Positions 4,095-34,584 are shown, counted from the stretch's first letter. The stretch: 64,000 bases of DNA from an uncultured Gemmatimonadales bacterium (GCA_963704805.1 CAVPHS010000001.1:1234496-1298495), one strand, 5' to 3'. Translations and numbers: made by a program. The notes: a model not told the origin generated them from the sequence alone.

Positions 4095-4139
4095 GCGAAC
4101 GACTTCAAACGCTGCAGCCCCCAACGGCATCTTAAGTCT

Positions 4140-4664
4140 GTGCCGAGTCCGGACGATCTCGTCGCCCGAGCGCAGGCTGGCGACCAGACGGCCTTCCGGG
4201 AGCTGTACCGCCAGCACGTGGGGCGGGTCTACGCGCTCTGCCTGCGCCTCACCGGCAACGCCGGCGACGCCGAGGAACGAACCCAGGATGTGTTCGTGCG
4301 ACTGTGGGACAAGGTCCGCAGCTTTCGGGGTGAAAGCGCGTTCTCTTCCTGGCTGCATCGCCTGGCCGTCAATGTGGTGTTGAACGAGCGTCGCACGACG
4401 TATCGCCGGGAGCAGCGCGTCGCCCTGGCGGAGGACCCGGCGGTGCTCGAGAAGAGCAACAGGACATCGACTGAGGGTTTGAGCATCGATCTCGAGCGGG
4501 CGATTGCCGAGCTGCCGGACGGAGCGCGCGAGGTGTTCGTGCTGTTCGACATCGAGGGCTACGCACACGCCGAGATCGCGCAGCTCGTGGGAATTGCCGA
4601 AGGAACGTCGAAGGCGCAATTGTTTCGGGCACGGCAGCTATTACGGGAGAAGCTGGACGCATGA
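4140..4664 (+). CDS. ECF-type RNA polymerase sigma-70 family factor
   Basis: Region 2 (FRELYRQHVGRVYALCLRLTGNAGDAEERTQDVFVRLW) and region 4 (ELPDGAREVFVLFDIEGYAHAEIAQLVGIAEGTSKAQLFRAR) are both recognisable. Confidence 0.9.
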   Translation: MPSPDDLVARAQAGDQTAFRELYRQHVGRVYALCLRLTGNAGDAEERTQDVFVRLWDKVRSFRGESAFSSWLHRLAVNVVLNERRTTYRREQRVALAEDPAVLEKSNRTSTEGLSIDLERAIAELPDGAREVFVLFDIEGYAHAEIAQLVGIAEGTSKAQLFRARQLLREKLDA

Positions 4665-5596
4665 ACGAGCAGGAGCTGGAACGGGCGGTCAGCCGACTGC
4701 CCAAGAGTATCGAACCACGGCGCGATCTCTGGCCCGGCATTGCGGCGCGGCTGGGGAGAAGGCGGGTCTGGTACTGGCTCCCGCTCGCGGCGGCCGCGGT
4801 GCTCGCCATCGTGCTGATCGGCCGGTCGATGGAGACGCAGGCGGCGTGGGACGTGACGATGCTCGCGGGGCGGCCGCTGCTGGGCAGCAATCCACTTACC
4901 GCGTCCGGTCGCCTGCGTGTCGGGGACTGGTTGCAGACGGACGATTCCTCGCGTGCGCTGGTCGCCGTCGGCCATATCGGTCGGGTCGAGGTGAAGCCCG
5001 GCACGCGACTGCAGCTCGTGGCTGCGCGCCCCACCGATCACCGCCTTGCACTCGCACGCGGCGCGATCGAGGCCACGGTGGATGCCGTGCCGCGTCTCTT
5101 CTTCGTGGAGACTCCCGCGGGGACTGCCATCGATCTCGGCTGCGCCTACACGCTCGAGACCGACTCCCTCGGCACCGGCCGGCTCCACGTCACGAAGGGT
5201 GAGGTGGAGTTCGCAACGGGGTCACGGTCCTCCCGCGTACTGCTCGGCGCCATCATTGGGACACGGCCGACCATCGGTCCCGGCATTCCCTACGTCGAGG
5301 ATGCGCCGGCGCCACTGGTGCGGGCGCTGACGGCATTCGACTTCGAGAAGGGCGGGGCGCGTGCCGCGCGCAACGTGCTGGCGCTCGCCCGGCCGCAGGA
5401 TGCGATGTCGCTCTGGCACTTACTGCAACGCGTCGATCCCACGCTGCGCGCGACGGTCTATGATCGCCTGGCGGCGCTGTTGCCGCCCCCCCCCCTCCAG
5501 GAGTCACGCGCTCGGGCGCGATCGCGCTCGATTCGCGCGCCCTCGAGGCCTACTGGACCAAGATCCATCGCATCCATTTCCGGCGCATGGTCCTGA
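4661..5596 (+). CDS. anti-sigma factor, FecR-domain-like
   Basis: It overlaps the sigma gene by ATGA. It has a single TM helix after about 30 aa and FecR-like beta-rich segments (GTRLQLVAA..., HVTKGEVEF). Confidence 0.6.
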   Translation: MNEQELERAVSRLPKSIEPRRDLWPGIAARLGRRRVWYWLPLAAAAVLAIVLIGRSMETQAAWDVTMLAGRPLLGSNPLTASGRLRVGDWLQTDDSSRALVAVGHIGRVEVKPGTRLQLVAARPTDHRLALARGAIEATVDAVPRLFFVETPAGTAIDLGCAYTLETDSLGTGRLHVTKGEVEFATGSRSSRVLLGAIIGTRPTIGPGIPYVEDAPAPLVRALTAFDFEKGGARAARNVLALARPQDAMSLWHLLQRVDPTLRATVYDRLAALLPPPPLQESRARARSRSIRAPSRPTGPRSIASISGAWS

Positions 5597-10786: not shown

Positions 10787-12393
10787 AACGTGCCGTCCTG
10801 CTGCCGATCCTGTTAACGATCTCGCTTGCCCCCAGGTTGTCAGCCCAGCACGACCACGAGCAGCTGGGGCATGTCGTGTTTCCCGTCTCATGTAATCAGG
10901 CAGCGCAGCAGCAATTCGAGCGCGCGATGACGATGCTGCACTCCTTCTGGTGGGAGCAGGGGCAGACTGCCTTTCAAGCGGTCATCACGGCGGACTCGAC
11001 GTGCGCGATGGGCTACTGGGGCCTCGCGCTGAACGCGTGGGGAAATCCCGTGGCAGGCGGTCCGGGCGGCATGGCGGGGAAGGGGGAAGCATTGCGGCGC
11101 GGTGCCACTGCGACTGTGCGGGCTGTAGCCCTCGGCGCGCCGACACCGCGCGAGCAGGGATTTCTGGCCGCCGCCGCGGCACTGTATCGCGGCTCCGATT
11201 CGGTCCCCAATGGCCGGCGCCTGCAGGCGTATTCCGATACGCTGGCGCGTCTCTACCGCGACCAGCCGAACGACACCGAAGTCGCCATTTACTATGCGTT
11301 GTCGCTCGTCGTGACCGCGCCCAAGACCGACACGACGTTCTCACGTCAGAAACACGCGGCGCAAATCCTGAACCCGCTGTTTGCGCGCTTCCCCGATCAT
11401 CCCGGTCTCGCGCATTACATCATCCACGCCTACGACTCGCCTCAGCTCGCCGAGCTCGGTCTCGATGCGGCGCGCCGCTACGCGCAAGTAGCGCCGGCCG
11501 CCCCCCACGCCCAGCACATGCCGTCGCACATCTTCATTCGGCGCGGCCTCTGGGATGAAACGATCGCGGCCAACCAGCGCGCGTTCGACGCCGGCGTCGC
11601 GTACGCAACCGCCCACCAAATTGGTGTCGCACCCGAGCAGCTGCATGCCCTGGACTACATGGTGTACGCGTATCTGCAACAAGGCCGAGACAGCGAGGCG
11701 CGACGCACGATCGCGCACGGGCTCGAGCTCCAGACGACGCTCACGCAGGACGCGCTGGTGGCGAACTACAACCGGGTCGCCATGGAAGTGCGACTGCCGC
11801 TCGAGCGCAGTGACTGGTCGGCGGCGTCTCAGCTGCCGGTGCGCGGCAGCGCGATGACGATCGGCGCGGCGCTGGGCCACTTCACGCGCGGCATCGGAGC
11901 CGCCCGCGTGCTCGACACCGCGCGCGCCAACGTGGAAGTCGCGGCCCTCGCCGCCATCGAAGCCGACATGACCCGGCGCGGGGACAGCGATTGGGGCCGG
12001 GTGGTCACGATCAAACGGCAGCTCGTGACGGCCTGGTCCACGTTCGCCGTCGGTGACACGGCACGCGCGCTTCAGCAAGTCAAAGCGGCCGCTGATCTGG
12101 AGGATGTCACGGAGAAACAGCCGATTACGCCGGGCGAGCCGCTCCCCGCGCGCGAGCTCGAGGCCGACATGCTGCTCGCGTCGCGCCAGTACTCCGAAGC
12201 GCGCGCCGCGTATGAAGCCGCGTTGAGACGCGAGCCCAACCGCGCGCGCAGCCTGTATGGCGCGGGGCGGGCCGCGCAGCTGGCCGGCGACTCAGCCGGA
12301 GCTCGACAACACTTTCTGGCATTTCTGGCGCAGATGCAGGAAGGCGACGGGGCCCGCGTGGAGATCGCGCGCGCGCGAGAGGCGCTGCGCTAG
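10783..12393 (+). CDS. secreted TPR-like repeat protein
   Basis: The start at 10783 (MKRAVLLPILLTISLAPRLSAQ signal) overlaps the permease stop. The C-terminal region is TPR-like (AAYEAALRREPNRARSLYGAGRAAQLAGD). Confidence 0.55.
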   Translation: MKRAVLLPILLTISLAPRLSAQHDHEQLGHVVFPVSCNQAAQQQFERAMTMLHSFWWEQGQTAFQAVITADSTCAMGYWGLALNAWGNPVAGGPGGMAGKGEALRRGATATVRAVALGAPTPREQGFLAAAAALYRGSDSVPNGRRLQAYSDTLARLYRDQPNDTEVAIYYALSLVVTAPKTDTTFSRQKHAAQILNPLFARFPDHPGLAHYIIHAYDSPQLAELGLDAARRYAQVAPAAPHAQHMPSHIFIRRGLWDETIAANQRAFDAGVAYATAHQIGVAPEQLHALDYMVYAYLQQGRDSEARRTIAHGLELQTTLTQDALVANYNRVAMEVRLPLERSDWSAASQLPVRGSAMTIGAALGHFTRGIGAARVLDTARANVEVAALAAIEADMTRRGDSDWGRVVTIKRQLVTAWSTFAVGDTARALQQVKAAADLEDVTEKQPITPGEPLPARELEADMLLASRQYSEARAAYEAALRREPNRARSLYGAGRAAQLAGDSAGARQHFLAFLAQMQEGDGARVEIARAREALR

Positions 12394-13415
12394 GCCACTT
12401 CCCGCTCGAGATACTCCTGGCGGTACATGCGACCGAGCTCGAAGAAATAGCTGAGCGCGAGCGGTCCGATCAGCAGTCCGAGCAGGCCGAAGTAGCTCAC
12501 GCCCGCGATCGCGCCGATCAGGGTGATGAGTGGGTGAATCGTGGAGAAGCGCCGGTAGATCAGCGGCCGGATGAAGTTGTCTACGCTGCCGACAACGACG
12601 ATCCCCCAGACGATGAGCAACACGCCGGCCACCGGCCGTCCCTGCATGATGAGCACCACCGCCGCCGGACCCCACACCAGACCGCTGCCGACAACGGGCA
12701 GGATCGCGAGCACCATCGTGACGACGCTCCAGAACAGCACATTGGGCAGTCCCGCGATCCAGAACGCCATGCCGAGCAGCGCTCCCTGCAGCGCGGCGAC
12801 CACACCCGTTCCGATCACGGTCGATACCGTGACGTCCTTGAAGCGCTGGCCGAGCTTCTCGGTGTTCTCGGGCGAGAACGGGATGTAGGGCTGGGCGTCG
12901 AGCCACACGCCACCTGGATGCTTCAGGACGTAGTAGAGCCCGAAGAACGAAATCGTGAGATTCAACGTGAGCCGCGTCGCGGTGCCGACCAGCCCGAACG
13001 CGCTGGTGCCGATCATCGTCACGAGCCGGCCTCCCGCTTCCGCCAGCCGCGGGCCAATCGGAATGCCGCGAATCTGGAGGCTCTGAAGGCGCTCGAGAAT
13101 CGGACTTTGCAGCACGCTCCCGGTCACCTGCTGTGCTTCGTTGATCAGCAAACCGGCGAATAGGAGGCCGGGGACGATGAGCAGCACCGCCCCGAACAGC
13201 GTCACCCCCAGCGCGGCGAATCCCGCCGGCGCGCCATGCTTCACGAGCCAGTCGTGCAGCGACCCGAACAGTACCGCGAGCACCGGGATGCCAATGATTC
13301 CGGTAGCGTAGGGCGCCAGGAAATAGACCGTTATCACGCCTAACGCGATGACGATGAACGCGGCGCGTTGATGCTTGGTGTCTAGGAAAGACAGGCTACC
13401 GCCCGCGTTCGACAC
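12390..13415 (-). CDS. AI-2E family transporter (PerM/UPF0118)
   Basis: The protein is 341 aa with multiple TM helices. The C-terminal DNFIRPLIY motif is typical of the family. Confidence 0.85.
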   Translation of the reverse strand: MSNAGGSLSFLDTKHQRAAFIVIALGVITVYFLAPYATGIIGIPVLAVLFGSLHDWLVKHGAPAGFAALGVTLFGAVLLIVPGLLFAGLLINEAQQVTGSVLQSPILERLQSLQIRGIPIGPRLAEAGGRLVTMIGTSAFGLVGTATRLTLNLTISFFGLYYVLKHPGGVWLDAQPYIPFSPENTEKLGQRFKDVTVSTVIGTGVVAALQGALLGMAFWIAGLPNVLFWSVVTMVLAILPVVGSGLVWGPAAVVLIMQGRPVAGVLLIVWGIVVVGSVDNFIRPLIYRRFSTIHPLITLIGAIAGVSYFGLLGLLIGPLALSYFFELGRMYRQEYLEREVA

Positions 13416-16400
13416 GCAGCACGCGAGTCAGTGTCTTCCCATCGACGGTGATCGTGACGAGATAATCGCCCGTCGCGACCGGCGGTGCGCCGCCGCCGAA
13501 GCCTCCGAATCCGCCCCCCCCCCCACCGGCGGGCGCGCGCCCGAACGCTTGGGCCACGAAGCCGAGCGCACCGAAGCCACCGCCACCGCCGCCCCCTTGT
13601 TGGCCGGGCCGGCGCAGCAGGTTGCCGAGGGTCTGCAAAAAGCTCGCGTCGGGCGGTGCATCACCGGATTCACCACCGCTCTCGCTGCCTGCGGCCGGCA
13701 GGGACCCACCGGGCGTCGGAGTGCGCGCCGTCGTCTCGCCGGGGCGTTCGTTGAACCGGCCGGTGGCCGTAAACGGCGATCCGCCGCCACCACCACCGCC
13801 CCCACCGCCCCCCCCACCGAATCCAAACCGCTGCGCGATCCCCTGCACGTCACCGGCCAGCAGCAGCTTCTTGATGGGGTCGAGCTGCTCGGCATTGCCG
13901 CCCGCTTTGGTCAGCGAATCGAACACCACGTTGATCCGCGCCACGAGCCACGCGCTATCCCGTTTCTGCGAGGGCGAAAGCGCTACCGGCGGCGGGGTCC
14001 GACCCTGGAAATTCCAGACGACCCGATGCAGGCCGGCGCCGGCCGGTCCCTGCACCGTGCGCACCGTATCGCCCCGAACGTCACGAATGACGATCTGCGT
14101 CCGCGCCCGCCGATCCGGATTGCCCTTGGTGAGCCGGTACACGATCTCGGCACCGTATTGGGGACTCGGGGAGCGGAACGCTTTCTGGCCTGCGTTGCCA
14201 CCGCCGAGCGGCGGCTGACCGTACTGGTACGCCGTCTTCGGCTGGAAGAGGTAGGCATCGGCGGTCAGCGCGCTGTCAGTGAGCTGCTCGAGCGGCGCGA
14301 TGTCCACGATCCAGAGCGCGCGGCCGTGCGTCGCCGCGATCAGCTCGCGCTCGCGCGGATGAATCGTGAGATCGTGCACCGGCACGGTCGGCAGGCCGTT
14401 CATGAACCGCTGCCACGATTTGCCGCGATCGAACGAGACGTAGAGCGCCGACATCGGTGCCCACGAACAGCAGGTCGCGGTTCGCCACGTCCTCGCGAAT
14501 CACGTGCACGTAGTTCGGCAGCGTCGCTCGGCGGGCAGGTTGTTCACGATCGAGCGGAACGTCTTGCCGAAATCGGTCGTCACGAACACGTACGGCGTGA
14601 AGTCGCCGTTGCGGTGGTTGTCGAACGTGACGTAGAACGTCGCCGTGTCGAACTGCGACGGCTCGATGCGGCTCACGTAGGTTCCGGCCGGGACGCCGGG
14701 GAAGCGGCCCGCCGTCAGATTCTCCCAGGTGCCGCCGTCGTTCCGGGTCAGCCACACGTTGCCGTCGTCGGTGCCGGCGTACAGCAGGCCGGGCCGGAGC
14801 GGCGACTCGGCCAGCGACACGATTGTGCAGTAGGTCTCGGCGCCCGTGACGTCGGGCGTGACGCCGCCGGTCGTGCGCGTGCTCACCCGGATCTTCATCG
14901 TGTCTTCGTGGTCAGGTCCGGCGAGATCGGATACAGGTCGTCCCCGCGCTGCGTGGACTTCATCACCTGGTTCGCGCCGGCGTAGAACGTCTCCGGATTG
15001 TGCGCCGAGATGAGGAAGGGCGTGTTCCAGTTCCAGCGCAGATCGGTTCGTCGGAGTCGGTGCTGTCTGCCGCACGCTTCAGCTCGGCGATGCGGCGCTT
15101 CTGTGCCGCTGTCTCGCGGCTTGGTCGGTGTCGGGGCGCTCGATGACGATCGAGTCCTCGTACAGTCGTGTAGCGCGGCCGCCACTGCGGCTTCTGCAGC
15201 GACGGTGCGCTCGCCGGTCGCGAGGTTGAGCCGCGACATGTTGCCGCCCTGCGACTCGACGTAGATCGATGTTCGGATCGGTGGGGTCCTGCGCCGTGTG
15301 GAAGCCGTCGCCGCCGCCGATCGTCGAACCAGTCGGCGTTGGTGATGTCGCCCTGGCGCCGGCGCTCGGCCCGCACCAGGAGCCGTTGTCCTGCAAGCCC
15401 GCGCAGACGCTGTAGGGGACGTCCATGTCGTAGCTGACGTTGTAGAACTGTCCGATCGCGAACGTGTTCAGGAAGTCCCAGTTGCCGCCCCTGTCCCAGG
15501 TCTGCGCCACGCCGCCGTCGTTGCCGACGATGATGTGATTCGGGATCGTTGGGATCGATCCACATCGCAGTGATGGTCGACGTGGATGCCCGACCGTCGC
15601 GTTGCCGACCGTCTTGCCGCCGTCATTCGAGTAATTCACCGGCGTCGACGACCAGTAGACGCGATTCGGGTTCTTCGGATCGACGCGCACCTGCGAGTAG
15701 TAGAAGGGACGCACGTCGTGCCGTTCATCTTTGCCCACGTCGCGCCGCCGTCGGTGGAGCGATACAGTCCGGAGGGCCGCGTCTGCGGGGCCTTGCCCGC
15801 GCCACCTTTCGCGTTGGCCGTCGTGTCGGCTTCGACCATCGGGTAGATGACCTTCGGGTCGGAGGCGCGCGATCGCGAGACCGATGCGGCCCTTGGTCGT
15901 TTCGGGGAGACCGCCGCCCTTGACCTCGGTCCACGTCTTGCCGCCGTCGGTCGTCTTCCAGAGTGCGCTGCCGGGGCCACCGCTGTTCAGGAAGTAGGGA
16001 CCGCGCACCCGCTGCCAGCTCGCGGCGAACAGTACTTCCGGATTCGACGGATCCATCGCGACGTCGACGAAGCCGGCCTGGTCGCAGATGAACTTGATGA
16101 GCTGCCAGGTCTGGCCGCCGTCGGTCGTCTTGTAGAGTCCGCGCTCGGGGTTGGCCGTCCACGGCTGCCCAGCGCCGCGACGTAGACGATGTTGGGATTG
16201 GTCGGATGCACGACGATGCGGCCGATCGCCCCGCCTTCTCGAGGCCCGATCGCGCTTCCAGGTGAGCCCGCCGTCGGTCGATTTGAAGATGCCGCAGCCC
16301 GGCGAGATCGTGTTGCGCGAGTCCTCCTCACCGGTGCCGGCCCAGACCTGCATCGTGTCGGACGGCGCGATGGCCAGCTCGCCCATCGAGATGCAGGGCT

Positions 16401-16689
16401 AGTTGTCGAACACCGGGCGGAACGTCGTGCCCGCGTTGGTCGTCTTCCAGATTCCACCCGCGGCGGCCGCGACAAAGAACGTGCGCGACGGGCTCGGGAT
16501 GCCGACGACGCTCGAGACTCGACCCTGCATGTTGGCCGGGCCGAGGTTGCGCCAGCGGAAGCCGGCGAGGAGCGTCGAGTCGAGCACGCCCGTCGTCACC
16601 GTGACGTTCTGCGGCGGCTGACGTTGAGGCGGGGGAAGCGTTGGTTGCGTTGGTGCCTGGATCAATGCGGCGAGCAGCATGACGAACAT
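13396..16689 (-). pseudogene. sortilin/VPS10-BNR repeat glycosyl-hydrolase-like secreted protein, disrupted (about 17 frame changes and one in-frame TAG)
   Basis: BNR/Asp-box motifs (S/TxDGGxTW) recur across ORF pieces in all three minus frames: 16399-16689, 15079-16386, 15987-16475, 15636-15980, 14963-15565, 14895-15239, 14500-15075, 14276-14755 and 13396-14454. A signal peptide lies at 16689. An amber codon lies at 16399-16401. Confidence 0.75.
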
Positions 16690-16696
16690 GACGGCC

Positions 16697-17608
16697 TCAA
16701 GATGAGAGGTTGTGGAGTGCCGAACCTGCAGCCATTGAAGTGCGAAGGGAAGGGGTGACGAGCGCGGCGGTGGAACGCGCGTCGGCGGCGATCGCGGTAC
16801 GCGCCACCACGGTCATCTGTCGCCGGCCGCTGGCCGGCCGCCCCGTCGCCGGGTCCATGACGTGGCCGAGGACCTGGCCCCCCAGGCGGATCACCGAGAC
16901 GGCATTCGATGAGGTGGCGAGGCCGGCGTCTCGCAGGCGCGCGGTTTGTGACGTCCCGGCGATGTCCACCCGCCACCCTTCGGGTTCACCCGGCGGGGCG
17001 CCGAGTCCGTAGCAGTCGCCACTCACGTCTACGAAGGCGCGCCGAATCCCCAGCGAGCGCAGGACTCGGACGGCGCGGTCGATTCCATACCCGACGCCGA
17101 TGCCGCCGAAATCGAGCTGCGTGTGCGAGCTGGGCAGCGAGACGAGGTCACCGTCCAGCCGTACCACCGCCGCTGCAACCGCCGCGCGCGCCTCTGCGAT
17201 CTCGGCGTCGGTCGGCAGAGCGCGGCGCGGCCGGTGAAACCCCCACGCGCGCATCAGCGGCTCGACGGCGGGGTCGAACGCCCGCGCGGTCGCGTTCCGG
17301 AACGCCTCCGCGGCGCCGAGGATGTCGCGCAGATCGCGGTCGGCCCGCATGGGACGCCGGCCCGCGTGCCGGTTCAGCTCGCACAGGTCGCTGGCGTCAT
17401 CAAATAGCGAGAGGCGCGCCTCGACGCGCCGCAGCTCGGCGAGTGCGCCCGCGCACGCTTCCTGCCCCGCGTCCTCCGAATCCGCGAACACCATAACGTG
17501 GACTGCCTGCCCCATCGCCCACGACCAGCGCTCGACAAATCGCTCGGTCCGGAAGCGCAGCGGTACCCAGATTCCCATAGCCGTGGCAACGAACTCGCGC
17601 CGTTTCAC
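16697..17608 (-). CDS. apbE: FAD:protein FMN transferase (ApbE family)
   Basis: ApbE-like sequence is present (AFDPAVEPLMRAWGF, LDFGGIGVGYGIDRAV, ATSSN, HVMDPATGRP). The likely GTG start at 17608 overlaps the upstream stop. Confidence 0.85.
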   Translation of the reverse strand: MKRREFVATAMGIWVPLRFRTERFVERWSWAMGQAVHVMVFADSEDAGQEACAGALAELRRVEARLSLFDDASDLCELNRHAGRRPMRADRDLRDILGAAEAFRNATARAFDPAVEPLMRAWGFHRPRRALPTDAEIAEARAAVAAAVVRLDGDLVSLPSSHTQLDFGGIGVGYGIDRAVRVLRSLGIRRAFVDVSGDCYGLGAPPGEPEGWRVDIAGTSQTARLRDAGLATSSNAVSVIRLGGQVLGHVMDPATGRPASGRRQMTVVARTAIAADARSTAALVTPSLRTSMAAGSALHNLSS

Positions 17609-18105
17609 GCCTGCTCCCCGCTCCCGGCTCCCAGCTCCCGCAGAATGAGGAAGGACTGCACGTAGAACGTGACGGCAAGCGTCGCGCTCGATGCTTCGAG
17701 CAGCCACGCGAAGCGCGCGTCGACGTAGCGCATCAGCCACATGGCGGTGAACGAGACGAGCAGCGTAACAAAGGGCTCCGCAATGAGGAAACGCCGCAAC
17801 CGCTGGGAGAGTCGCTCACACAGTGCCACGCCGATCCCCGTAAAGGCGAAGATCACCGCCATGCTGAGCAGGTGTGTGTGCGTGATCGTGAGCATCTCTC
17901 CGATCGACTTGGGGAACTGCATTGGCGCGGTTGCCGTCGTGTCGACGATCGCGCCCCGGTAGCGGGAGGCGATACCCGGCGGAGTGAGGTGCGTCGTGTG
18001 CCACACGAAGATGAGCGACGTGGTGTAGCCCACGAGCTGCACGATGGTCAGCCAGCGTGCGAGCGTGCGCCACGGCGCGGGCAATGTGCGCCAGGACCAC
18101 GTCAC
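17605..18105 (-). CDS. His-rich 4-TM membrane protein of unknown function
   Basis: The GTG start at 18105 overlaps the FMN-binding gene stop. WHTTH and THTH motifs occur in or near the TM helices. Confidence 0.5.
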   Translation of the reverse strand: MTWSWRTLPAPWRTLARWLTIVQLVGYTTSLIFVWHTTHLTPPGIASRYRGAIVDTTATAPMQFPKSIGEMLTITHTHLLSMAVIFAFTGIGVALCERLSQRLRRFLIAEPFVTLLVSFTAMWLMRYVDARFAWLLEASSATLAVTFYVQSFLILRELGAGSGEQA

Positions 18106-18566: not shown

Positions 18567-19684
18567 CAGAACTGGTACCCCACGCCCAGGCGCAACGTCT
18601 CGCCGGTGCCGCCACCAGCCGCGGTGCGCCGAATCTCGTAGTCACCCTTGAAGGCCGTATTCCAGGTCGGCTTGTAGGTCAATCCGAACGTCGTGATCCG
18701 CCGCGCGAGCTCTGGGTCGCGTGGCGTTCCCGCCGGGACGGCGGCGTGGGTATCGTAGTGTTCATAGCGGACGAATGCAGTCAGGCGCTGCTTGCTGCTT
18801 GCGGCAAGCAGTCGCAGCAGGTTATACGCCCCCTCGACATATGCGCCCGTGATACGGCTTCCCACGCCGCCACCGTACAGCGCGTTGATCGTGTCGGCGT
18901 CGCTGACGCTGATCGTGGCGAAGACGCCACGCACCGCGAGCGCGCCGCGTTCATATCGTCCGTCTGCCGACACCACCGCGACTGGTGCGGTGAACGTGCC
19001 GGTGCCGAGTAGCGTGTCACCGGCGCTCGTGCCGCCGTACCAGAACGACCCACCCAGTTTGAGCCCCGGACGTGCCCATTCGAGCCGGCCGGTGAGCGAC
19101 GGATTGGCGAACGTCGCGTTCTGTCCCTCCTGCCGCCCCTCGCGAATGCCCTCCTCTGCCGAGAACCCACTCGCCTTGAGACCATTTACGAGGTACACGC
19201 GGTAGCTCCATCCTTCCATCGGGAGCGTGCCCACCAGACCGATGCCGAGCTCGCGCCAGGTGGTGGGAATGACATCGTTATCGAATGCCGGCCGATCGAC
19301 GCCGTTGAACGTCGGCGGCTCGTGTGTTTCGTTGATGATGCCGACCGGCATGAGCACGAGACCCGTGCGGATGGTCGTGCGATCGGAGATACGATAATCG
19401 AGGAATGCCTGCTCGAGGCCGACTTCGCCGCCCGACCCGCCGGCTTCGATCTTTGCGTCTTCGATTTCGAGCTCGGAACGGAAGCTCAGCTTGTCGTTGA
19501 ACGTGTGGGCGAGGTAGACGACGAAACGGCGGAGGTTGATTACAGCAGGCGTGTTTGGCCCCGACAGATTCGTATAGTGGATTTCGCCGTATCCTCCGAG
19601 CGTGGTGGATTCCTGGGCGACGGTGGGCCGGAGCGGGAGGGCAACGAGCGCAGCCGCGATAAGGCCGATCAGGGGTCGACACAT
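18566..19684 (-). CDS. outer-membrane porin-like beta-barrel protein
   Basis: The start at 19684 (MCRPLIGLIAAALVALPLRPTVAQ signal) is followed by an alternating beta-strand pattern. The C-terminus ends in GVGYQF. Confidence 0.6.
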   Translation of the reverse strand: MCRPLIGLIAAALVALPLRPTVAQESTTLGGYGEIHYTNLSGPNTPAVINLRRFVVYLAHTFNDKLSFRSELEIEDAKIEAGGSGGEVGLEQAFLDYRISDRTTIRTGLVLMPVGIINETHEPPTFNGVDRPAFDNDVIPTTWRELGIGLVGTLPMEGWSYRVYLVNGLKASGFSAEEGIREGRQEGQNATFANPSLTGRLEWARPGLKLGGSFWYGGTSAGDTLLGTGTFTAPVAVVSADGRYERGALAVRGVFATISVSDADTINALYGGGVGSRITGAYVEGAYNLLRLLAASSKQRLTAFVRYEHYDTHAAVPAGTPRDPELARRITTFGLTYKPTWNTAFKGDYEIRRTAAGGGTGETLRLGVGYQF

Positions 19685-19787
19685 GGGGTGCAAAGACTCC
19701 TGTTTAAAGTTGAGAGAAATTGTCGGGATATACCCGAATGTATTTATCGGATATTTTGGGTCAAGATCTCTTGATCTGGAGGTCGAC

Positions 19788-20267
19788 ATGCAACTCGGGA
19801 CGGTAGCAGCCGTCGCTCTATTTCTGACGGTTCTAGGGTCGCAGGCTTCCGCGCAAGAGACGGAAAAGGAAAAGAAGGTCAAACGGTCCGACCTGCCGGC
19901 GGCCGTACAGCGGACTGCTGACGAACAGAGCGCCGGCGCAACGGTCAAGGGTTATTCGATCGAGGAGGACAACGGCCAGGTCGTCTATGAGGTCGAAATG
20001 ACCATGCGCGGCCACGGGCGCGACGTGCTCATTGGCGCCGATGGGACCGTGCTGGAAATCGAGGAGGAAGTCGCGCTCGACTCACTGCCCGCGGCCGTGC
20101 GGACGGGACTCAAGCAACTCGCCGGGTCCGGCACCATCGGGAAGGTGGAGTCGCTGACCAAGCGGGGCACGCTCGTGGCGTACGAAGCCCACGTGAAGAC
20201 GGGCGACAAGCGCTCAGAGATCCAGGTTGGTCCCGACGGCAAGCCGCTCGCGCACCCAGAGGACTGA
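19788..20267 (+). CDS. PepSY-like secreted protein
   Basis: A signal peptide is present. Two repeats of the pattern LPAAV...G..I...E.....G..VYEV occur. Confidence 0.55.
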   Translation: MQLGTVAAVALFLTVLGSQASAQETEKEKKVKRSDLPAAVQRTADEQSAGATVKGYSIEEDNGQVVYEVEMTMRGHGRDVLIGADGTVLEIEEEVALDSLPAAVRTGLKQLAGSGTIGKVESLTKRGTLVAYEAHVKTGDKRSEIQVGPDGKPLAHPED

Positions 20268-26224: not shown

Positions 26225-26298
26225 CGGGACGTAGCGCAGCCCGGTAGCGCACCTGAATGGGGTTCAGGGGGTCGCGGGTTCAAATCCCGCCGTCCCGA
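26225..26298 (+). tRNA. tRNA-Pro (anticodon GGG), no encoded CCA
   Basis: A manual cloverleaf fits: acceptor CGGGACG/CGTCCCG, D stem GCGC/GCGC, anticodon stem CCTGA/TCAGG with loop ATGGGGT, and T arm GCGGG-TTCAAAT-CCCGC. Confidence 0.85.
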
Positions 26299-31225: not shown

Positions 31226-32422
31226 ATGATATGCCCCATGCCCACGCATCGCCCGACGATCAATCCGGCCCTGCTCGTCTGGGCGCGCCGCTCGCTGAAC
31301 CTCACCGAGGAACAGGCGGCGACGCGGGTAGGCGTGTCGCTCGACATCTTGCGCGGGTGGGAGAAAGGCGATCCGCTCCCCACAATCGCGCAACTCCGCA
31401 ACGCCGCCGAGAAGTACCGCCGGCCGCTCGGCGTATTCTTTCTGCCGACACCGCCCGCAGACCCGGCTCCCCCGCATGACTTTCGGACAGTTTCCGACCG
31501 GGAAGCCGAGGAGCTTAGTCCCGAGTTACTCGTCGAGCTGCGGCGCGCGCACTATCGCCGTCAACTCGCGCTAGAGCTGCACGAGGACCTCGAACGCCGA
31601 CCGCCGCGCTTCCAACTGCGCGCGCAGCTTGACGACGACGAGGAGGAGACGGGCCGACGTGTCCGCCACGCGCTCGGCGCTCGGCTCGCGGATCAAGAGC
31701 GGTGGCGCGAGGGGAGCGCCTTCAACGAGTGGAAGGCGCTCGTTGAGGCGCACGGGGTGCTCGTGTTCCAGGCGCGCGGCGTGTCCTTTCGCGAGGCGCG
31801 CGGGTTTTCGATTGCCGAGCACCCGTTGCCCGCCATCGTCGTCAACGGTTCGGATTTCCCCAACGCCAAGACGTTCACGCTCCTGCATGAGTTTGTGCAC
31901 CTCATGCTGCATCTCGGCGGCATCTGCGATCCGTACGCACATGTTGCCCGTGGCCGCTCTCGCAACAGCCGCGTCGAAGTGTTCTGCAACCACGTCGCGG
32001 GGGCGGCGCTCGTGCCCGCGGCGGCGCTGGTCAATCATGGTCTGGTGCAATCGAACGAGGAGCCCGAGGGATGGACGGAGGCGACGCTCGACCGGCTCGC
32101 GCGCGACTTCGCCGTTAGCTCGCTCGTCATCCTCCGCCGGCTGCTCATGCTCGGCCGGACCACAACACGCTTCTATGAGAGCTTTCAAACGCAGGTCATC
32201 GCGCGGGCGGAACGACACCGCGCCGAGCGCCCGCCGCAGGAAGGCGGACCGCCGCGGCCCGTTATGGTCGTCGCCGACTTGGGCCGAGCCTTCACCGGAA
32301 CCGTGCTCGATGCGTACAAGAGCCGCGTCATTACCGCCTCGGACGTATCGGAGTACCTCCGCGTCCGCGTTCCGCAGATCGGCGCGGTACAGGAGCGCCT
32401 TACCCTGGGCGCTGGTGAGTAA
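31226..32422 (+). CDS. XRE-type HTH fused to an ImmA/IrrE family metallopeptidase
   Basis: An N-terminal HTH (LTEEQAATRVGVSLDILRGWEKG) and the zinc motif HEFVHLMLH are present. Confidence 0.8.
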   Translation: MICPMPTHRPTINPALLVWARRSLNLTEEQAATRVGVSLDILRGWEKGDPLPTIAQLRNAAEKYRRPLGVFFLPTPPADPAPPHDFRTVSDREAEELSPELLVELRRAHYRRQLALELHEDLERRPPRFQLRAQLDDDEEETGRRVRHALGARLADQERWREGSAFNEWKALVEAHGVLVFQARGVSFREARGFSIAEHPLPAIVVNGSDFPNAKTFTLLHEFVHLMLHLGGICDPYAHVARGRSRNSRVEVFCNHVAGAALVPAAALVNHGLVQSNEEPEGWTEATLDRLARDFAVSSLVILRRLLMLGRTTTRFYESFQTQVIARAERHRAERPPQEGGPPRPVMVVADLGRAFTGTVLDAYKSRVITASDVSEYLRVRVPQIGAVQERLTLGAGE

Positions 32423-32469
32423 CGCTGTTCTCATTCGATACCAGCGCACTTATTGGCGCACATAACGAG

Positions 32470-32880
32470 TTGTATCGGCCGCAGACGTTCCCCGGTCTGT
32501 GGCGAAAGCTGGAAGCGATGATCGCCGAGGGTGAGCTGCGCTGTTCGGAGGAGGTGCTCCACGAGCTGGAGCGCCAGGACGATGACTTGCTCAAATGGGC
32601 GAAGGCTCAGAACGGCCTCTTTGTCCCAATGGACGCCGAGATTGAAGCGGCGGTCAAAACCGTCGTTGTGATTCCCAACGTCGTAAAGAACGCCTCGACC
32701 GACAACTCGGCAGACCCGTTCGTTGTGGCGGTTGGCATAGCGCGGAAGGCGACGGTTGTGAGCAGGGAGAAGCCCGGTAGCGCGCAACGCCCCAAAATCC
32801 CGTACATCTGTAGTGCGTTGAGTGTGCCTCACCAAACACTGGAGGAGTTTGTGACCGGGCAGGGGTGGTCATTTGAGTAG
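32470..32880 (+). CDS. DUF4411 (PIN-like) protein, partner of ImmA/IrrE
   Basis: The pairing is typical and the sequence fits (FPGLW...SEEVLHELERQDDDL...ADPFVVA). The conserved-looking N-terminus (LFSFDTSALIGAHNEL) extends upstream to about 32425 with no ATG/GTG/TTG. Confidence 0.65.
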   Translation: MYRPQTFPGLWRKLEAMIAEGELRCSEEVLHELERQDDDLLKWAKAQNGLFVPMDAEIEAAVKTVVVIPNVVKNASTDNSADPFVVAVGIARKATVVSREKPGSAQRPKIPYICSALSVPHQTLEEFVTGQGWSFE

Positions 32881-32901
32881 CTACTCCGCGAGGAGGCATT
32901 A

Positions 32902-33924
32902 GTGGGAGACTGTCTGTATTGCGGGAAACCCGCCGGTTGGTTCCGCTCAAAGCACAAAGAGTGCGAGACCAAAAACCAGATAGGCCGCGAACAGATCGTC
33001 GCGCTCGCTCAGCGGGCCGTCAGAGACGGGAGCGACCTGACCGCCGTTCAGAGCGAGGTCGGGCGACTGGCGGCAACCGCCTTCGTCCCCCCGGATGAAC
33101 TGCCCAAGTTGTGGCTGACGGCGTGGGAGAACGCCGTGCAAAGCGCGTTGGAGGATAACGTAGTCACAGCCGACGAGGAAAAAGCACTCGTTCGGGCGGC
33201 GGAGCACCTCGGCTGGAAACAAGAAGACTTCTACACTAACGGCGCGTTCGTGAAGCTCGTGCAGGCAGGTGTGTTGCGGGACCTCATGGAGGGAAAACTT
33301 CCTGCGAGGTTTGAAGTCAAAGGACAGCTACCATTCAACTTCCAAAAAGGCGAGGAATTGCTCTGGGCGTTCCCCGGCGTGAAGTACTTCGAAACGCGGA
33401 TGCGACGGACGTTCGTCGGCGGTTCGCAAGGATTCAGCGTGCGGGTTGCGCGCGGCGTCTATTACCGGGTCGGAGGTTTTCGGGGCGAGGCCATACAGAA
33501 TCCCGAGACCGTGTTGGTGGACACGGGAACGCTCGGTGTGACGCAGAAGCACCTCTACTTTGCCGGGCCGTTGAAAAGTTTTCGAGTGCGGTTCGACAAG
33601 ATCGTGTCGTTTACGCCGTATTCCGACGGAATCGGCTTTCAGCGAGACGCGTTGACGGCGAAGCCCCAGGCGTTGCTCACTGGCGACGGGTGGTTCATTT
33701 ACAATCTGGTCACAAACCTCGCCAGCATGGAAACAGAGGAGCCGTCGAACGTGGAGCGACGCGCCCGGAAGTTTATTCCCGCTCGGGTGGAAATTGAGGA
33801 AGAAGCACCGGCACCGACCTGGACAAGATGTTCTCGCTCGCAATTGTCGGTGAATCACACTATCAGGACGCGCTGGAAGCAATCTGCGGCGAGCGGGACG
33901 ACGATGGCGTTGACCGCGTCGTGA
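32902..33924 (+). CDS. hypothetical protein with an N-terminal zinc ribbon
   Basis: CLYCGKPAGWFRSKHKEC is present. The 3' end overlaps the HIRAN ORF by about 97 nt in another frame. Confidence 0.4.
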   Translation: MGDCLYCGKPAGWFRSKHKECETKNQIGREQIVALAQRAVRDGSDLTAVQSEVGRLAATAFVPPDELPKLWLTAWENAVQSALEDNVVTADEEKALVRAAEHLGWKQEDFYTNGAFVKLVQAGVLRDLMEGKLPARFEVKGQLPFNFQKGEELLWAFPGVKYFETRMRRTFVGGSQGFSVRVARGVYYRVGGFRGEAIQNPETVLVDTGTLGVTQKHLYFAGPLKSFRVRFDKIVSFTPYSDGIGFQRDALTAKPQALLTGDGWFIYNLVTNLASMETEEPSNVERRARKFIPARVEIEEEAPAPTWTRCSRSQLSVNHTIRTRWKQSAASGTTMALTAS

Positions 33925-34169
33925 ACGCGTCGCTCGTGCTGGAAGGCTCCAACCCCTACGATCCGCAGGCGGTTCGTGTCGACATCGACGGCAAGACAGT
34001 GGGCTACCTGAGCCGACCTACCGCCCGCGCCTTCCGCCAACAGGTTGCAGCTGGCCAACCCGAAGGAACAGCGTTGCCGTGTAAGGCTAGGATCAAAGGC
34101 GGTTGGGATCGCGGCCCGGAGGACCAAGGCCAATTCGGCGTCTGGCTCAACCTGTCGTTGGAAGGCTGA
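33828..34169 (+). CDS. HIRAN domain protein
   Basis: IVGESHYQDAL...NPYDPQAVRV...GKTVGYL is present. Confidence 0.7.
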   Translation: MFSLAIVGESHYQDALEAICGERDDDGVDRVVNASLVLEGSNPYDPQAVRVDIDGKTVGYLSRPTARAFRQQVAAGQPEGTALPCKARIKGGWDRGPEDQGQFGVWLNLSLEG

Positions 34170-34389
34170 CCAGCGACGCCGAGACTTTTGGTAGTTTTGG
34201 CACTACAAAATCGGAGAATCTTCTACTTGCAGCCGTTCGGCTGCTCACTAAATTGCGTCTTACCATAGCGGCATCGGCCGCGTGACTGGCGGACCCCTCG
34301 CTCCGGCGGAGCGAGGACACAGCCGCAAGACCTCAGTGACTGCCACTTGGAGCCAACTGCTCCGGGTGGCTTTCGTTTTTGGGGGGACA

Positions 34390-34584
34390 ATGCCCGCAAC
34401 GCGCCTACATCGTCTGACCATTCGGTTTCGTGGGCAAGAGGCGCAGCTCGTCAAGGTCGTCGCCGGGCGTCAGGGATTGTCGTTCGCCGAGTGGGCGCGC
34501 GCGGCGTTGCTGCGTCATGCGCAGCTCGAACTCGACCCGGCACCGGTGAACGGTCGCCGCGCCGAGCCGAGCCGGCAGGCCTGA
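34390..34584 (+). CDS. ribbon-helix-helix (CopG-like) DNA-binding protein
   Basis: RLTIRFRGQEAQLVKVVAGRQGLSFAEWARAALL is present. Confidence 0.5.
   Translation: MPATRLHRLTIRFRGQEAQLVKVVAGRQGLSFAEWARAALLRHAQLELDPAPVNGRRAEPSRQA

Follow-up and report, generated by a model that had tools for sequence, protein, structure and literature searches.

Can a gene whose protein is recognisable only by moving between reading frames be a real feature of its organism, or was it broken in the deposited sequence? The question is raised by a minus-strand gene running from 16689 to 13396 in a 64,000-nt stretch of DNA from an uncultured Gemmatimonadales bacterium, the whole of which is referred to here as the window. 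The initial annotation named, without ranking them, a pseudogene in decay, a local fault of assembly or consensus, and frameshifts that compensate one another in a still-expressed gene; the analysis favoured the assembly or consensus option and contradicted the other two. Judged from the sequence, the damage (about 20 one-base indels plus a TAG, 14445-16401) is very probably a local consensus or assembly artefact.

Gene identity and neighbourhood

The gene (13396..16689, minus strand) has a length of 3294 nt, a multiple of 3, and its syntenic orthologue is an intact Gemmatimonadales VPS10/sortilin-BNR propeller protein of about 1,100 amino acids (aa), with 85% aa identity. Its best matches, which are intact, measure 1,056-1,133 aa and share 81-85% identity over 97-99% of the length, and tblastn gave one alignment, in one frame, spanning the full length of the gene. 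The family appears in the source records as 'VPS10 domain-containing protein', 'WD40/YVTN/BNR-like repeat-containing protein' or 'photosystem II stability/assembly factor-like'. The layout comprises a hydrophobic N-terminal leader, the propeller, a Gly-rich low-complexity linker and a small C-terminal domain, ending at the natural stop TAG (13396-13398, minus strand).

With the indels removed, the protein matched Pfam Sortilin-Vps10 (PF15902) at 99.9 bits against a cut-off of 33, compared with 95.6 bits for an intact orthologue, and BNR (PF02012) at 32.8 bits against a cut-off of 27; the raw ORF fragments reached only 27.1 and 21.1 bits for Sortilin-Vps10, under the cut-off. The Asp-box motif (S-x-D-x-G-x-T-W) is present, and the DNA holds five copies of an Asp-box repeat family, spaced 153-196 nt apart and encoding ..TTDGGxTW... 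The downstream neighbour is an intact AI-2E family transporter gene (12390..13415, minus strand; PF01594, 116.8 bits, profile positions 4-319 of 327) that overlaps the end of the propeller gene by 20 nt, and the upstream neighbour is an intact ApbE family flavin transferase gene (16697..17740, minus strand; PF02424, 188.5 bits, profile positions 1-247 of 266). The order ApbE - sortilin - AI-2E transporter is retained in L081 and L082. Set beside Gemmatimonadota VPS10/sortilin BNR (Asp-box) propellers, the repaired gene is typical in length, Pfam content, Asp-box repeats and neighbourhood, and differs by ordinary species-level divergence only, with a leader peptide shorter than those of the orthologues. 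By these features the gene, once repaired, is an ordinary, putatively secreted beta-propeller gene of a soil Gemmatimonadales bacterium.

Inventory of the indels

Three-frame translation of the minus strand and the ORF list showed the homologous protein jumping between frames from about 16250 to 14445. The ORF pieces of the gene, all on the minus strand, lie at 16399-16689 (96 aa), 15079-16386 (435 aa), 14500-15075 (191 aa) and 13396-14454 (352 aa). Frameshift-aware alignment to the closest intact homologue had been suggested in the initial annotation; run at the protein-to-DNA level with four intact orthologues, it gave 17-19 frameshift events. Nucleotide alignment to ten orthologues gave 21 indel events, including one at ~14522 that was read separately. 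All 21 are 1-2 nt long (14 insertions and 7 deletions, net +9 nt). The damaged segment (14445..16250, minus strand) holds all 17-21 frameshifting indels, about 10 per kb, and the ancestral frame is lost in about 35% of its codons.

The events, all on the minus strand, fall into seven clusters. Cluster 1 (16168..16250) has +2 at 16249-16250, -1 at 16230 and -1 at 16168, or +1 at 16248 and -1 at 16171 in the protein-level alignment, and its out-of-frame patch encodes ..AIGRIVVHPTNPNIVYVAALG. Cluster 2 (15720..15867) has +1 at 15867 and -1 at 15720, with a patch that encodes SDPKVIYPMVEAD...TWAKMNG. Cluster 3 (15541..15591) consists of +1 at 15591 (GG to GGG), 15569 (T between C and G) and 15541 (G between C and A), cluster 4 (15328..15367) of -1 at 15367 and +1 at 15328, and cluster 5 (15166..15269) of +1 at 15269, 15200 and 15166. 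In cluster 6 (14905..15128) there are +1 at 15128, 15117 and 15079, +2 at 15065-15066, and -1 at 15048 and 14905; the TGA that terminates the 435-codon ORF (15079-15081) lies here. Cluster 7 (14445..14530) has +1 at 14445 and, in a loop whose length varies, -1 (or +2) within 14516-14530 (~14522); the TGA at 14500-14502 falls inside this cluster.

Upstream of the indels, an in-frame TAG (16399-16401, minus strand; VFDN*PCIS) occupies a variable codon of the homologous frame that is GAG, TAC/TAT or CAG in the orthologues, from each of which it is a single substitution away. The start frame thus contains three stops: this TAG, TGA 15079-15081 and TGA 14500-14502.

The initial annotation was accurate in its description of the damage. 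It had the protein jumping frames between about 16270 and 14455, which translation, ORFs and alignments bear out with 17-21 indels in 14445-16250. Its first four clusters, (+1,-1), (+1,-1), (+1,+1,+1) and (-1,+1), were reproduced by the protein-level frameshift-aware alignment, and the TAG does lie in the homologous frame. It had also called the last 1 kb and both neighbouring genes clean, which held and extends to the 5' 290 nt. The clean 5' part (16402..16689, minus strand) carries the start codon, a short hydrophobic leader and the first conserved blade motif, and the clean 3' part (13396..14444, minus strand) carries the last propeller blades, the Gly-rich linker and the C-terminal domain. 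All length differences from orthologues in the 3' part are multiples of 3, and its two long G runs, of 11 and 8 nt (13514-13524 and 13808-13815, where the plus strand has C runs), are in frame.

Frame restoration and recoding

The heading of the initial annotation stressed frame changes that 'repeatedly restore the frame'. Random +/-1 indels taken modulo 3 give the same pattern: the frame is regained 7 times in 18 steps, where a random walk modulo 3 predicts 5.8-6.2 returns (P = 0.25-0.41), and the chance of a gene ending in frame is 1/3. One frame is indeed open for 435 codons (15079-16386), as annotated, but an open frame crossing about 151 out-of-frame codons is at chance level at the local G+C content (P about 0.07-0.12). 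No ~100-nt periodicity was found among the junctions, whose spacing is Poisson-like (CV 0.94). Compensation as a signal was rejected, the modulo-3 random-walk and permutation tests being not significant.

A still-expressed gene, in which frameshifts compensate one another and leave novel out-of-frame patches, or in which ribosomes shift at each site, would account for a net length divisible by 3, for seven returns to frame and for the 435 open codons. Such a reading is scarcely credible, as the returns and the open frame are both at chance level and the start frame holds the three stops. About 230 propeller codons would be replaced by unrelated sequence in the shifted patches, yet their nucleotides bear the mark of selection in the old frame: where these 230 codons differ from orthologues, 61-66% of the differences are at ancestral third positions, and first- and second-position rates equal those between intact orthologues. 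An uninterrupted frame, and selection in the new frame within the shifted patches, were sought, and three stops and ancestral codon-position differences were found instead; together these contradict the compensated-and-expressed option. The twelve closest orthologous genes for which DNA was examined (the ten aligned, L008 and L083) are each one uninterrupted ORF, so no shift site is conserved. The shift sites share no motif and no 4-mer is enriched among them. Compensatory ('saviour') indels and programmed ribosomal frameshifting resemble this locus in that the frame is lost and then regained within one gene, but in known examples the frame changes at only one or two places, with a slippery motif or a short patch that is tolerated and conserved among relatives (PMC5009743), whereas here there are 17-21 unrelated sites, in-frame stops, no conservation among orthologues and an old frame that is still selected.

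Age of the indels and selection on the gene

On the codon-position signature within the out-of-frame codons, the indels are evidently younger than essentially all of the divergence from the orthologues. The remaining sequence was examined for lineage-specific change. With the indels removed, 8 of 407 aa at sites invariant in ten orthologues are uniquely changed (2.0%); the same invariant-site test gave 0.2-2.7% in nine of the ten intact orthologues and 5.7% in L019, the most distant. At codon positions 1 and 2 there are 8 unique changes in 948 sites, against 0.5-1.9% in the nine closest intact orthologues. Relaxed constraint would give an excess of lineage-specific non-synonymous changes; none was seen, both the aa and the first- and second-position counts lying within the range of these nine orthologues.

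These counts bear on the view that the locus is a genuine, very recent pseudogene, with real indels and a real amber codon that accrued after the gene became dispensable. The deposited sequence does contain three start-frame stops and at least 17 frameshifts, and bacterial pseudogenes with multiple indels exist (PMC6054270). Neutral decay, however, would be expected to bring many more substitutions than indels, and no excess is seen; it would also scatter indels over the whole gene, whereas 18 of the 18 protein-level events fall within 1,806 nt of the 3,294-nt gene (P = 3e-4; P = 2.5e-8 when the two intact neighbours are included).

Indel spectrum and sequence context

The published indel/substitution ratios used here are 1.8-11.9% (Sung 2016, PMC4978911), and the highest reported ratio is 35% (PMC8717266). 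If all 8 unique changes are taken as neutral, 2-6 indels are expected and at least 18 are seen (P = 5e-12 to 4e-5 for ratios of 1.8-11.9% and 35%). Under extreme assumptions, combining the 95% upper bound on substitutions with the highest published indel ratio, this test weakens to P = 0.04. In real bacterial pseudogenes deletions outnumber insertions and the mean deletion is about 19 nt (PMC6054270). Decay should leave a deletion bias and a range of sizes, and its single-base events should favour runs. Here insertions are in excess (14 against 7 deletions, P = 0.025). Eleven 4-nt runs lie in the damaged segment, and homopolymer slippage was rejected, only 1 of the 21 events adjoining a 4-nt run. 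The natural pattern of fewer indels than substitutions, a deletion bias, mixed sizes and an association with runs was not what was found.

Measured against neutral-decay bacterial pseudogenes, the locus is alike in that frameshifts at many sites and an internal stop set it apart from its intact syntenic orthologues, and unlike in its lack of a substitution excess and of spread, its surplus of insertions over deletions, its exclusively 1-2-nt events and its lack of run context. The decaying-pseudogene option of the initial annotation is thus contradicted by the absence of a substitution excess, the confinement of indels to 1.8 kb and the unnatural spectrum, and a genuine pseudogene is unlikely.

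Confinement, missing substitutions and the youth of the indels would also be explained, with no artefact involved, if a single event, one tract of extremely error-prone repair synthesis of ~1.9 kb, had produced real indels. Such an 'indel shower' would have left ~20 one-base insertions and deletions with almost no substitutions in a living lineage and killed the gene instantly. We regard it as very improbable.

Independent sequences and relatives

An AI-2E protein identical to that of the window was found on two Logan contigs. One of them, the short-read contig ucvus9ps (run ERR12036778, another sample), has upstream of this gene an ORF that remains open for at least 410 codons to the contig end and spans the last two damage sites, which speaks against a genuine pseudogene. 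No frame of the window permits such an ORF upstream of the transporter gene, since the start frame is cut to 368 codons by TGA 14500-14502. The comparison is indirect, being one of ORFs; the ucvus9ps ORF stops 14 nt later than that of the window, and the contig also differs elsewhere.

Same-species DNA was absent from the genome collection, where the best match was 86%, and protein searches gave nothing above 85% except the window's own fragment P0308. That fragment of the damaged gene (132 aa, ending ...AERRCRTTCT) is recorded from an NCBI/ENA contig of 1,826,265 nt. Exact and codon-degenerate DNA scans of JGI metagenomes returned no same-species DNA and only L083, an intact orthologue that is 84% identical. 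When the ORF fragments of the window and its ApbE were looked up as exact sequences, there was no match. A frame-hopping orthologue on a JGI contig (P0309/L084) was set aside: its single-base indels, six within 1.2 kb, differ from those in the window and give them no confirmation. It is 94% identical to another species (L016), and the JGI data set that holds it is one we take to be PacBio-derived.

State of the rest of the window

No other damaged gene was detected in the window by G+C phase plot, ORF map or Pfam coverage. In a Pfam scan of twenty other ORFs, the domain families detected were all essentially complete against their profiles; four of these ORFs matched no Pfam family. Coding homopolymers of 8, 9 and 11 nt elsewhere in the window are in frame. 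With the window otherwise free of damage, long homopolymers included, the cause cannot be a general loss of quality and must be local. The search for a local cause found no repeat, paralogue, composition anomaly, homopolymer signature or sequence-motif enrichment; the best 4-mer at the indel sites had P = 0.011 among 124 tests (GATC, P = 0.11). tRNA and Rfam scans gave no match at the propeller-gene locus. A collapsed paralogue (a variant put forward in the initial annotation) or repeat was rejected as unsupported: the window has no second copy, only Asp-box motif repeats, and each related assembly has a single locus.

Origin of the damage

The indels are 1-2 nt long, are unaccompanied by substitutions, and their removal restores the orthologue, as expected of an artefact. 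Long-read assemblies are documented to contain artefactual indels that fragment genes (PMC12007338), and polishing reduces them (PMC12313526). From the 1.83 Mb source contig, and from a soil lineage whose Mb-scale contigs come from Nanopore MAG projects, we infer that the source is a long-read assembly. The organism most likely carries an intact, ordinary VPS10/sortilin-type BNR beta-propeller gene, and the indels would have arisen in sequencing or assembly, not in the cell. The consensus of a roughly 2-kb stretch would have been built from poor, sparse or mixed long reads and never properly polished; a coverage dip, mixed strains or failed polishing are candidate reasons for its failure.

Long-read (Nanopore or PacBio CLR) indel errors are likewise dense, 1-2 nt long, occasionally accompanied by a false stop and able to make an apparent pseudogene of a conserved gene; unlike them, the errors here all fall within a single 2-kb stretch, the remainder of the 64 kb being clean. 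Residual Nanopore errors are usually homopolymer-linked and scattered, whereas those of the window avoid homopolymers. The Nanopore signature of homopolymer or methylation-motif association was not found, with 1 of 21 events near a 4-nt run and the 8- and 11-nt runs in frame. Random, insertion-biased single-base errors of this kind fit a PacBio-CLR-like or low-coverage consensus better.

A sub-type nested within the artefact explanation, not additional to it, is a mixed-haplotype consensus, possible but on balance doubtful, in which reads of two co-occurring strains or of a close population were merged. SNP sites would have entered the consensus with two alleles (+1) or with none (-1), and the TAG would be a chimera of TAC and CAG/GAG, codons that are both present among orthologues at this position. 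By eye, most inserted bases adjoin an ancestral third position as a synonymous alternative (CAC[T]GCG, CCC[G]AAT, ACC[G]TCG, GGC[G]CTC), and a third-position placement is possible for most deletions. This signature was striking by eye, but objective placement against a simulated null gave 9.2 of 12 insertions (null 0.66 per event, P = 0.19) and 3.5 of 6 deletions (null 0.42, P = 0.22), with a joint P of 0.11, not significant, so the two-haplotype signature was rejected and is retained only as this nested possibility. Measured at synonymous sites, the window is more 'central' among orthologues where it is damaged (ratio 0.855, CI 0.81-0.90) than in the flanking parts (1.01), but the synonymous-distance profile does not track the damage boundaries.

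Implications

The steps applied here may be reused as a recipe, independent of reads, for telling artefactual indel clusters from real decay. It asks whether indels are confined to one part of the gene, counts lineage-specific changes at otherwise invariant sites with the indels removed, reads the codon-position signature within shifted patches, compares the indel spectrum with natural mutation spectra, and sets apparent compensation against a modulo-3 random-walk null. For this genome the locus is a quality flag: annotation would present it as a pseudogene or split it into four fragment proteins, at least one of which (P0308) is already in protein collections, and 14445-16401 should be treated as unreliable in pseudogene or gene-content counts. 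The damaged frame pattern is, in all likelihood and as far as the DNA can tell, not a real feature of the organism. The biological weight of the locus is small: the gene belongs to a very large family in which it is nothing out of the ordinary, and its 'compensated frameshifts' are an arithmetic illusion.

Frameshifts in the propeller gene

The gene on the minus strand from 16689 to 13396 is the orthologue of a VPS10/sortilin-type BNR (Asp-box) beta-propeller protein of about 1,100 aa that is ubiquitous in soil Gemmatimonadales. With the protein stitched from three frames as the query, intact matches of 1,056 to 1,133 aa were obtained at 81 to 85% identity over 97 to 99% of the length, and tblastn gave a single alignment, in one frame, spanning the entire gene. 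The gene is 3,294 nt long in the window, a length divisible by three, and was 77 to 84% identical to ten orthologous genes in the nucleotide alignment. The order ApbE, propeller gene, AI-2E transporter is kept at the closest loci, and both flanking genes are intact in the window. Compared with the leader of the orthologues (MFQRLWAAAAVL...ASQ), the leader peptide in the window (16600-16689, MFVMLLAALIQAPTQ...) falls short by more than 13 codons; it contains no basic residue, and every length difference from the orthologues in this region is a multiple of three.

The initial annotation had described a protein that hops between frames and is interrupted by an in-frame amber codon. Using the ORF list and three-frame translation, homologous sequence was indeed found to switch frames from about 16250 to 14445, and the homologous frame does contain the TAG at 16399-16401. 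Frameshift-aware protein-to-DNA alignment to four orthologues placed 17 to 19 events, the first four clusters of the annotation were reproduced exactly, and nucleotide alignment gave 21 events (14 insertions and 7 deletions), every one of 1 to 2 nt, with a net gain of 9 nt. The TAG codon is variable, and since the orthologues have GAG, TAC/TAT or CAG, it represents a single substitution; further on, the start frame is interrupted twice more, by TGA codons at 15079-15081 and 14500-14502. The flanks are clean, as had been described: the 3' 1,050 nt and the neighboring genes carry no frameshift, and the 5' 290 nt are also free.

The observation was thus accurate, but the reported frame restoration is at chance level as a signal. 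Seven returns were counted in eighteen +/-1 steps, against a mean of 5.8 to 6.2 expected under permutations or independent steps (P = 0.25-0.41), and the probability of finishing in frame by chance is one third. The switch about every 100 nt did not hold up as a period either, with a Poisson-like inter-event coefficient of variation of 0.94. Stop codons account for only 1.1 to 2.0% in the shifted frames of the ten orthologues; the lack of a stop in about 151 out-of-frame codons therefore has a probability of about 0.07 to 0.12, and the 435-codon open frame is unremarkable. Expression of the gene with compensated frameshifts, which had been offered as an option, is effectively excluded, and so is recoded expression. 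High G+C, rather than a gene, accounts for a 536-codon antisense open frame opposite the propeller gene (13375-14985, plus strand), an example of how readily this sequence produces long ORFs.

Tests for a pseudogene

A second option, a decaying pseudogene, was opposed by four tests (location, substitutions, age, and spectrum). All events fall within 1,806 of the 3,294 nt (P = 3e-4; with the two intact neighbors added, P = 2.5e-8). Once the indels were removed, 8 unique amino-acid changes were counted at 407 sites invariant in the ten orthologues (2.0%), the same measure being 0.2 to 2.7% in nine of the ten intact orthologues and 5.7% in the most distant locus, L019. At invariant first and second codon positions, 8 of 948 were unique to the window, inside the range of those nine orthologues (L019 excluded), and the repaired protein scored 99.9 bits for Sortilin-Vps10, slightly better than an intact orthologue (95.6 bits). 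Across the 230 out-of-frame codons, ancestral third positions take 61 to 66% of the differences from orthologues, and at first and second positions the rates match those of comparisons among intact orthologues; selection on the old frame was therefore active until essentially the present.

Indel rates have been measured at 1.8 to 11.9% of substitution rates (PMC4978911), the highest value, about 35%, being that of a single unusual bacterium (PMC8717266). Were all eight unique changes neutral, 2 to 6 indels would be expected, whereas the gene has at least 18 (P = 5e-12 to 4e-5); the test weakens to P = 0.04 only when the most extreme ratio is applied together with the 95% upper bound on substitutions. 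In real bacterial pseudogenes, deletions exceed insertions and the mean deletion is near 19 nt (PMC6054270), whereas the window gene has twice as many insertions as deletions and no event longer than 2 nt. The 4-nt runs of the damaged segment (n = 11) are touched by one event only. A real, very recent pseudogene would require a mutation process unlike any measured and is improbable.

Nature of the probable error

The damaged segment could be a consensus of two strains, in which a second synonymous allele was inserted or a third position is missing, the TAG being a chimera of TAC and CAG/GAG. By eye, many insertions lie beside third codon positions and many deletions look like lost third positions, but the pattern was not significant (P = 0.11) once events were placed objectively and compared with a simulated null. 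At synonymous sites, the window occupies a somewhat more central place among the orthologues across the damaged segment (ratio 0.855 versus 1.01), but the synonymous-distance profile does not track the damage boundaries: the distance to nine orthologues is about 15% below the inter-orthologue distance over 14214-16460 (ratio 0.855, CI 0.81-0.90), and the ratio is about 1.0 in the flanks. This lowering could reflect recombination, mixed consensus, or noise. A collapsed paralogue had also been proposed, but no repeat or paralogue was found in the window or related assemblies. The damaged segment showed no composition anomaly, and the indel sites no motif association.

Independent sequences

Two short-read (Logan) contigs from other runs (ERR12036778 and ERR15459715) encode an AI-2E protein identical to that of the window. 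In the first of them, ucvus9ps (run ERR12036778), the ORF upstream of AI-2E stays open up to the contig end, for 410 codons or more; in the window, TGA 14500-14502 ends the start frame after 368 codons. No window frame permits such an ORF, so ucvus9ps cannot carry the last two frameshifts, which is indirect evidence. In ucvus9ps, the propeller ORF ends 14 nt farther downstream than in the window, overlapping the AI-2E gene by 34 nt instead of 20 nt, and the second Logan contig has the same 20-nt overlap as the window (region 13382-13415). One assembly differs by a frameshift somewhere in the Gly-rich tail, which carries an 11-nt G run (13514-13524).

No same-species sequence was found in the genome collection (best match, 86%), the protein collection contained nothing above 85% except P0308, a 132-aa fragment of the window gene itself (ending ...NNLPAERRCRTTCT), and JGI metagenome scans for the same species returned nothing or another intact orthologue. 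All Mb-scale contigs among the related loci come from one Nanopore soil-MAG project, and we infer that the window sequence derives from such data. A 1,264-nt metagenome contig, L084 (JGI 3300015052, Ga0137411_1300974), carries at 106-1194 a propeller orthologue of another species, 94% identical to locus L016, with six single-base indels (four deletions and two insertions) in 1.2 kb and a 362-aa ORF passing through both in-frame and out-of-frame patches. The phenomenon is the same as in the window, but the indel positions differ, and L084 was rejected as confirmation of the window's indels. Frame-hopping fragments of the propeller family circulate in databases. Three other family fragments, P0262, P0300, and P0302, have unrelated peptides at their ends or starts (..RSEERRVGKECRSRWSPYH, MLDYKVTGVQTCALPI.., ..FFFFFSSRRRHTRWPRDWSSDVCSSDL..) that resemble the translation of junk sequence or of chimeric contig ends.

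Quality of the assembly

The 64-kb map of G+C phase and ORFs shows long genes without interruption. Pfam was searched with twenty other ORFs, selected as abutting or overlapping on one strand, and each detected domain family was covered over essentially its whole profile; four had no match and are not judgeable in this way. Coding homopolymers of 8, 9, and 11 nt are in frame, two of them in the propeller gene's own tail. Because the rest of the assembly is clean, the problem is local.

Elsewhere in the window, an ECF sigma-factor gene (4095-4661) is followed downstream by a 373-aa ORF without Pfam match, close to whose end there is a 10-nt C run (5486-5495). Third-position G+C is about 0.72 at 32419-34550 versus 0.8 to 0.9 elsewhere; this stretch, possibly an acquired island, includes an ORF for DUF4411, a short ORF that matches HIRAN weakly, and one of 347 aa without Pfam match. 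At 19250-20000, between an FMN-binding-domain gene cluster and the next plus-strand gene, G+C falls to 0.57-0.59 with strongly positive GC skew. The sole RNA gene detected in the window was tRNA-Pro(GGG) (26225-26298).

The interpretation is ordinary: the frameshifts at 14445-16250 very probably form a local island of consensus or assembly error within an intact propeller gene.
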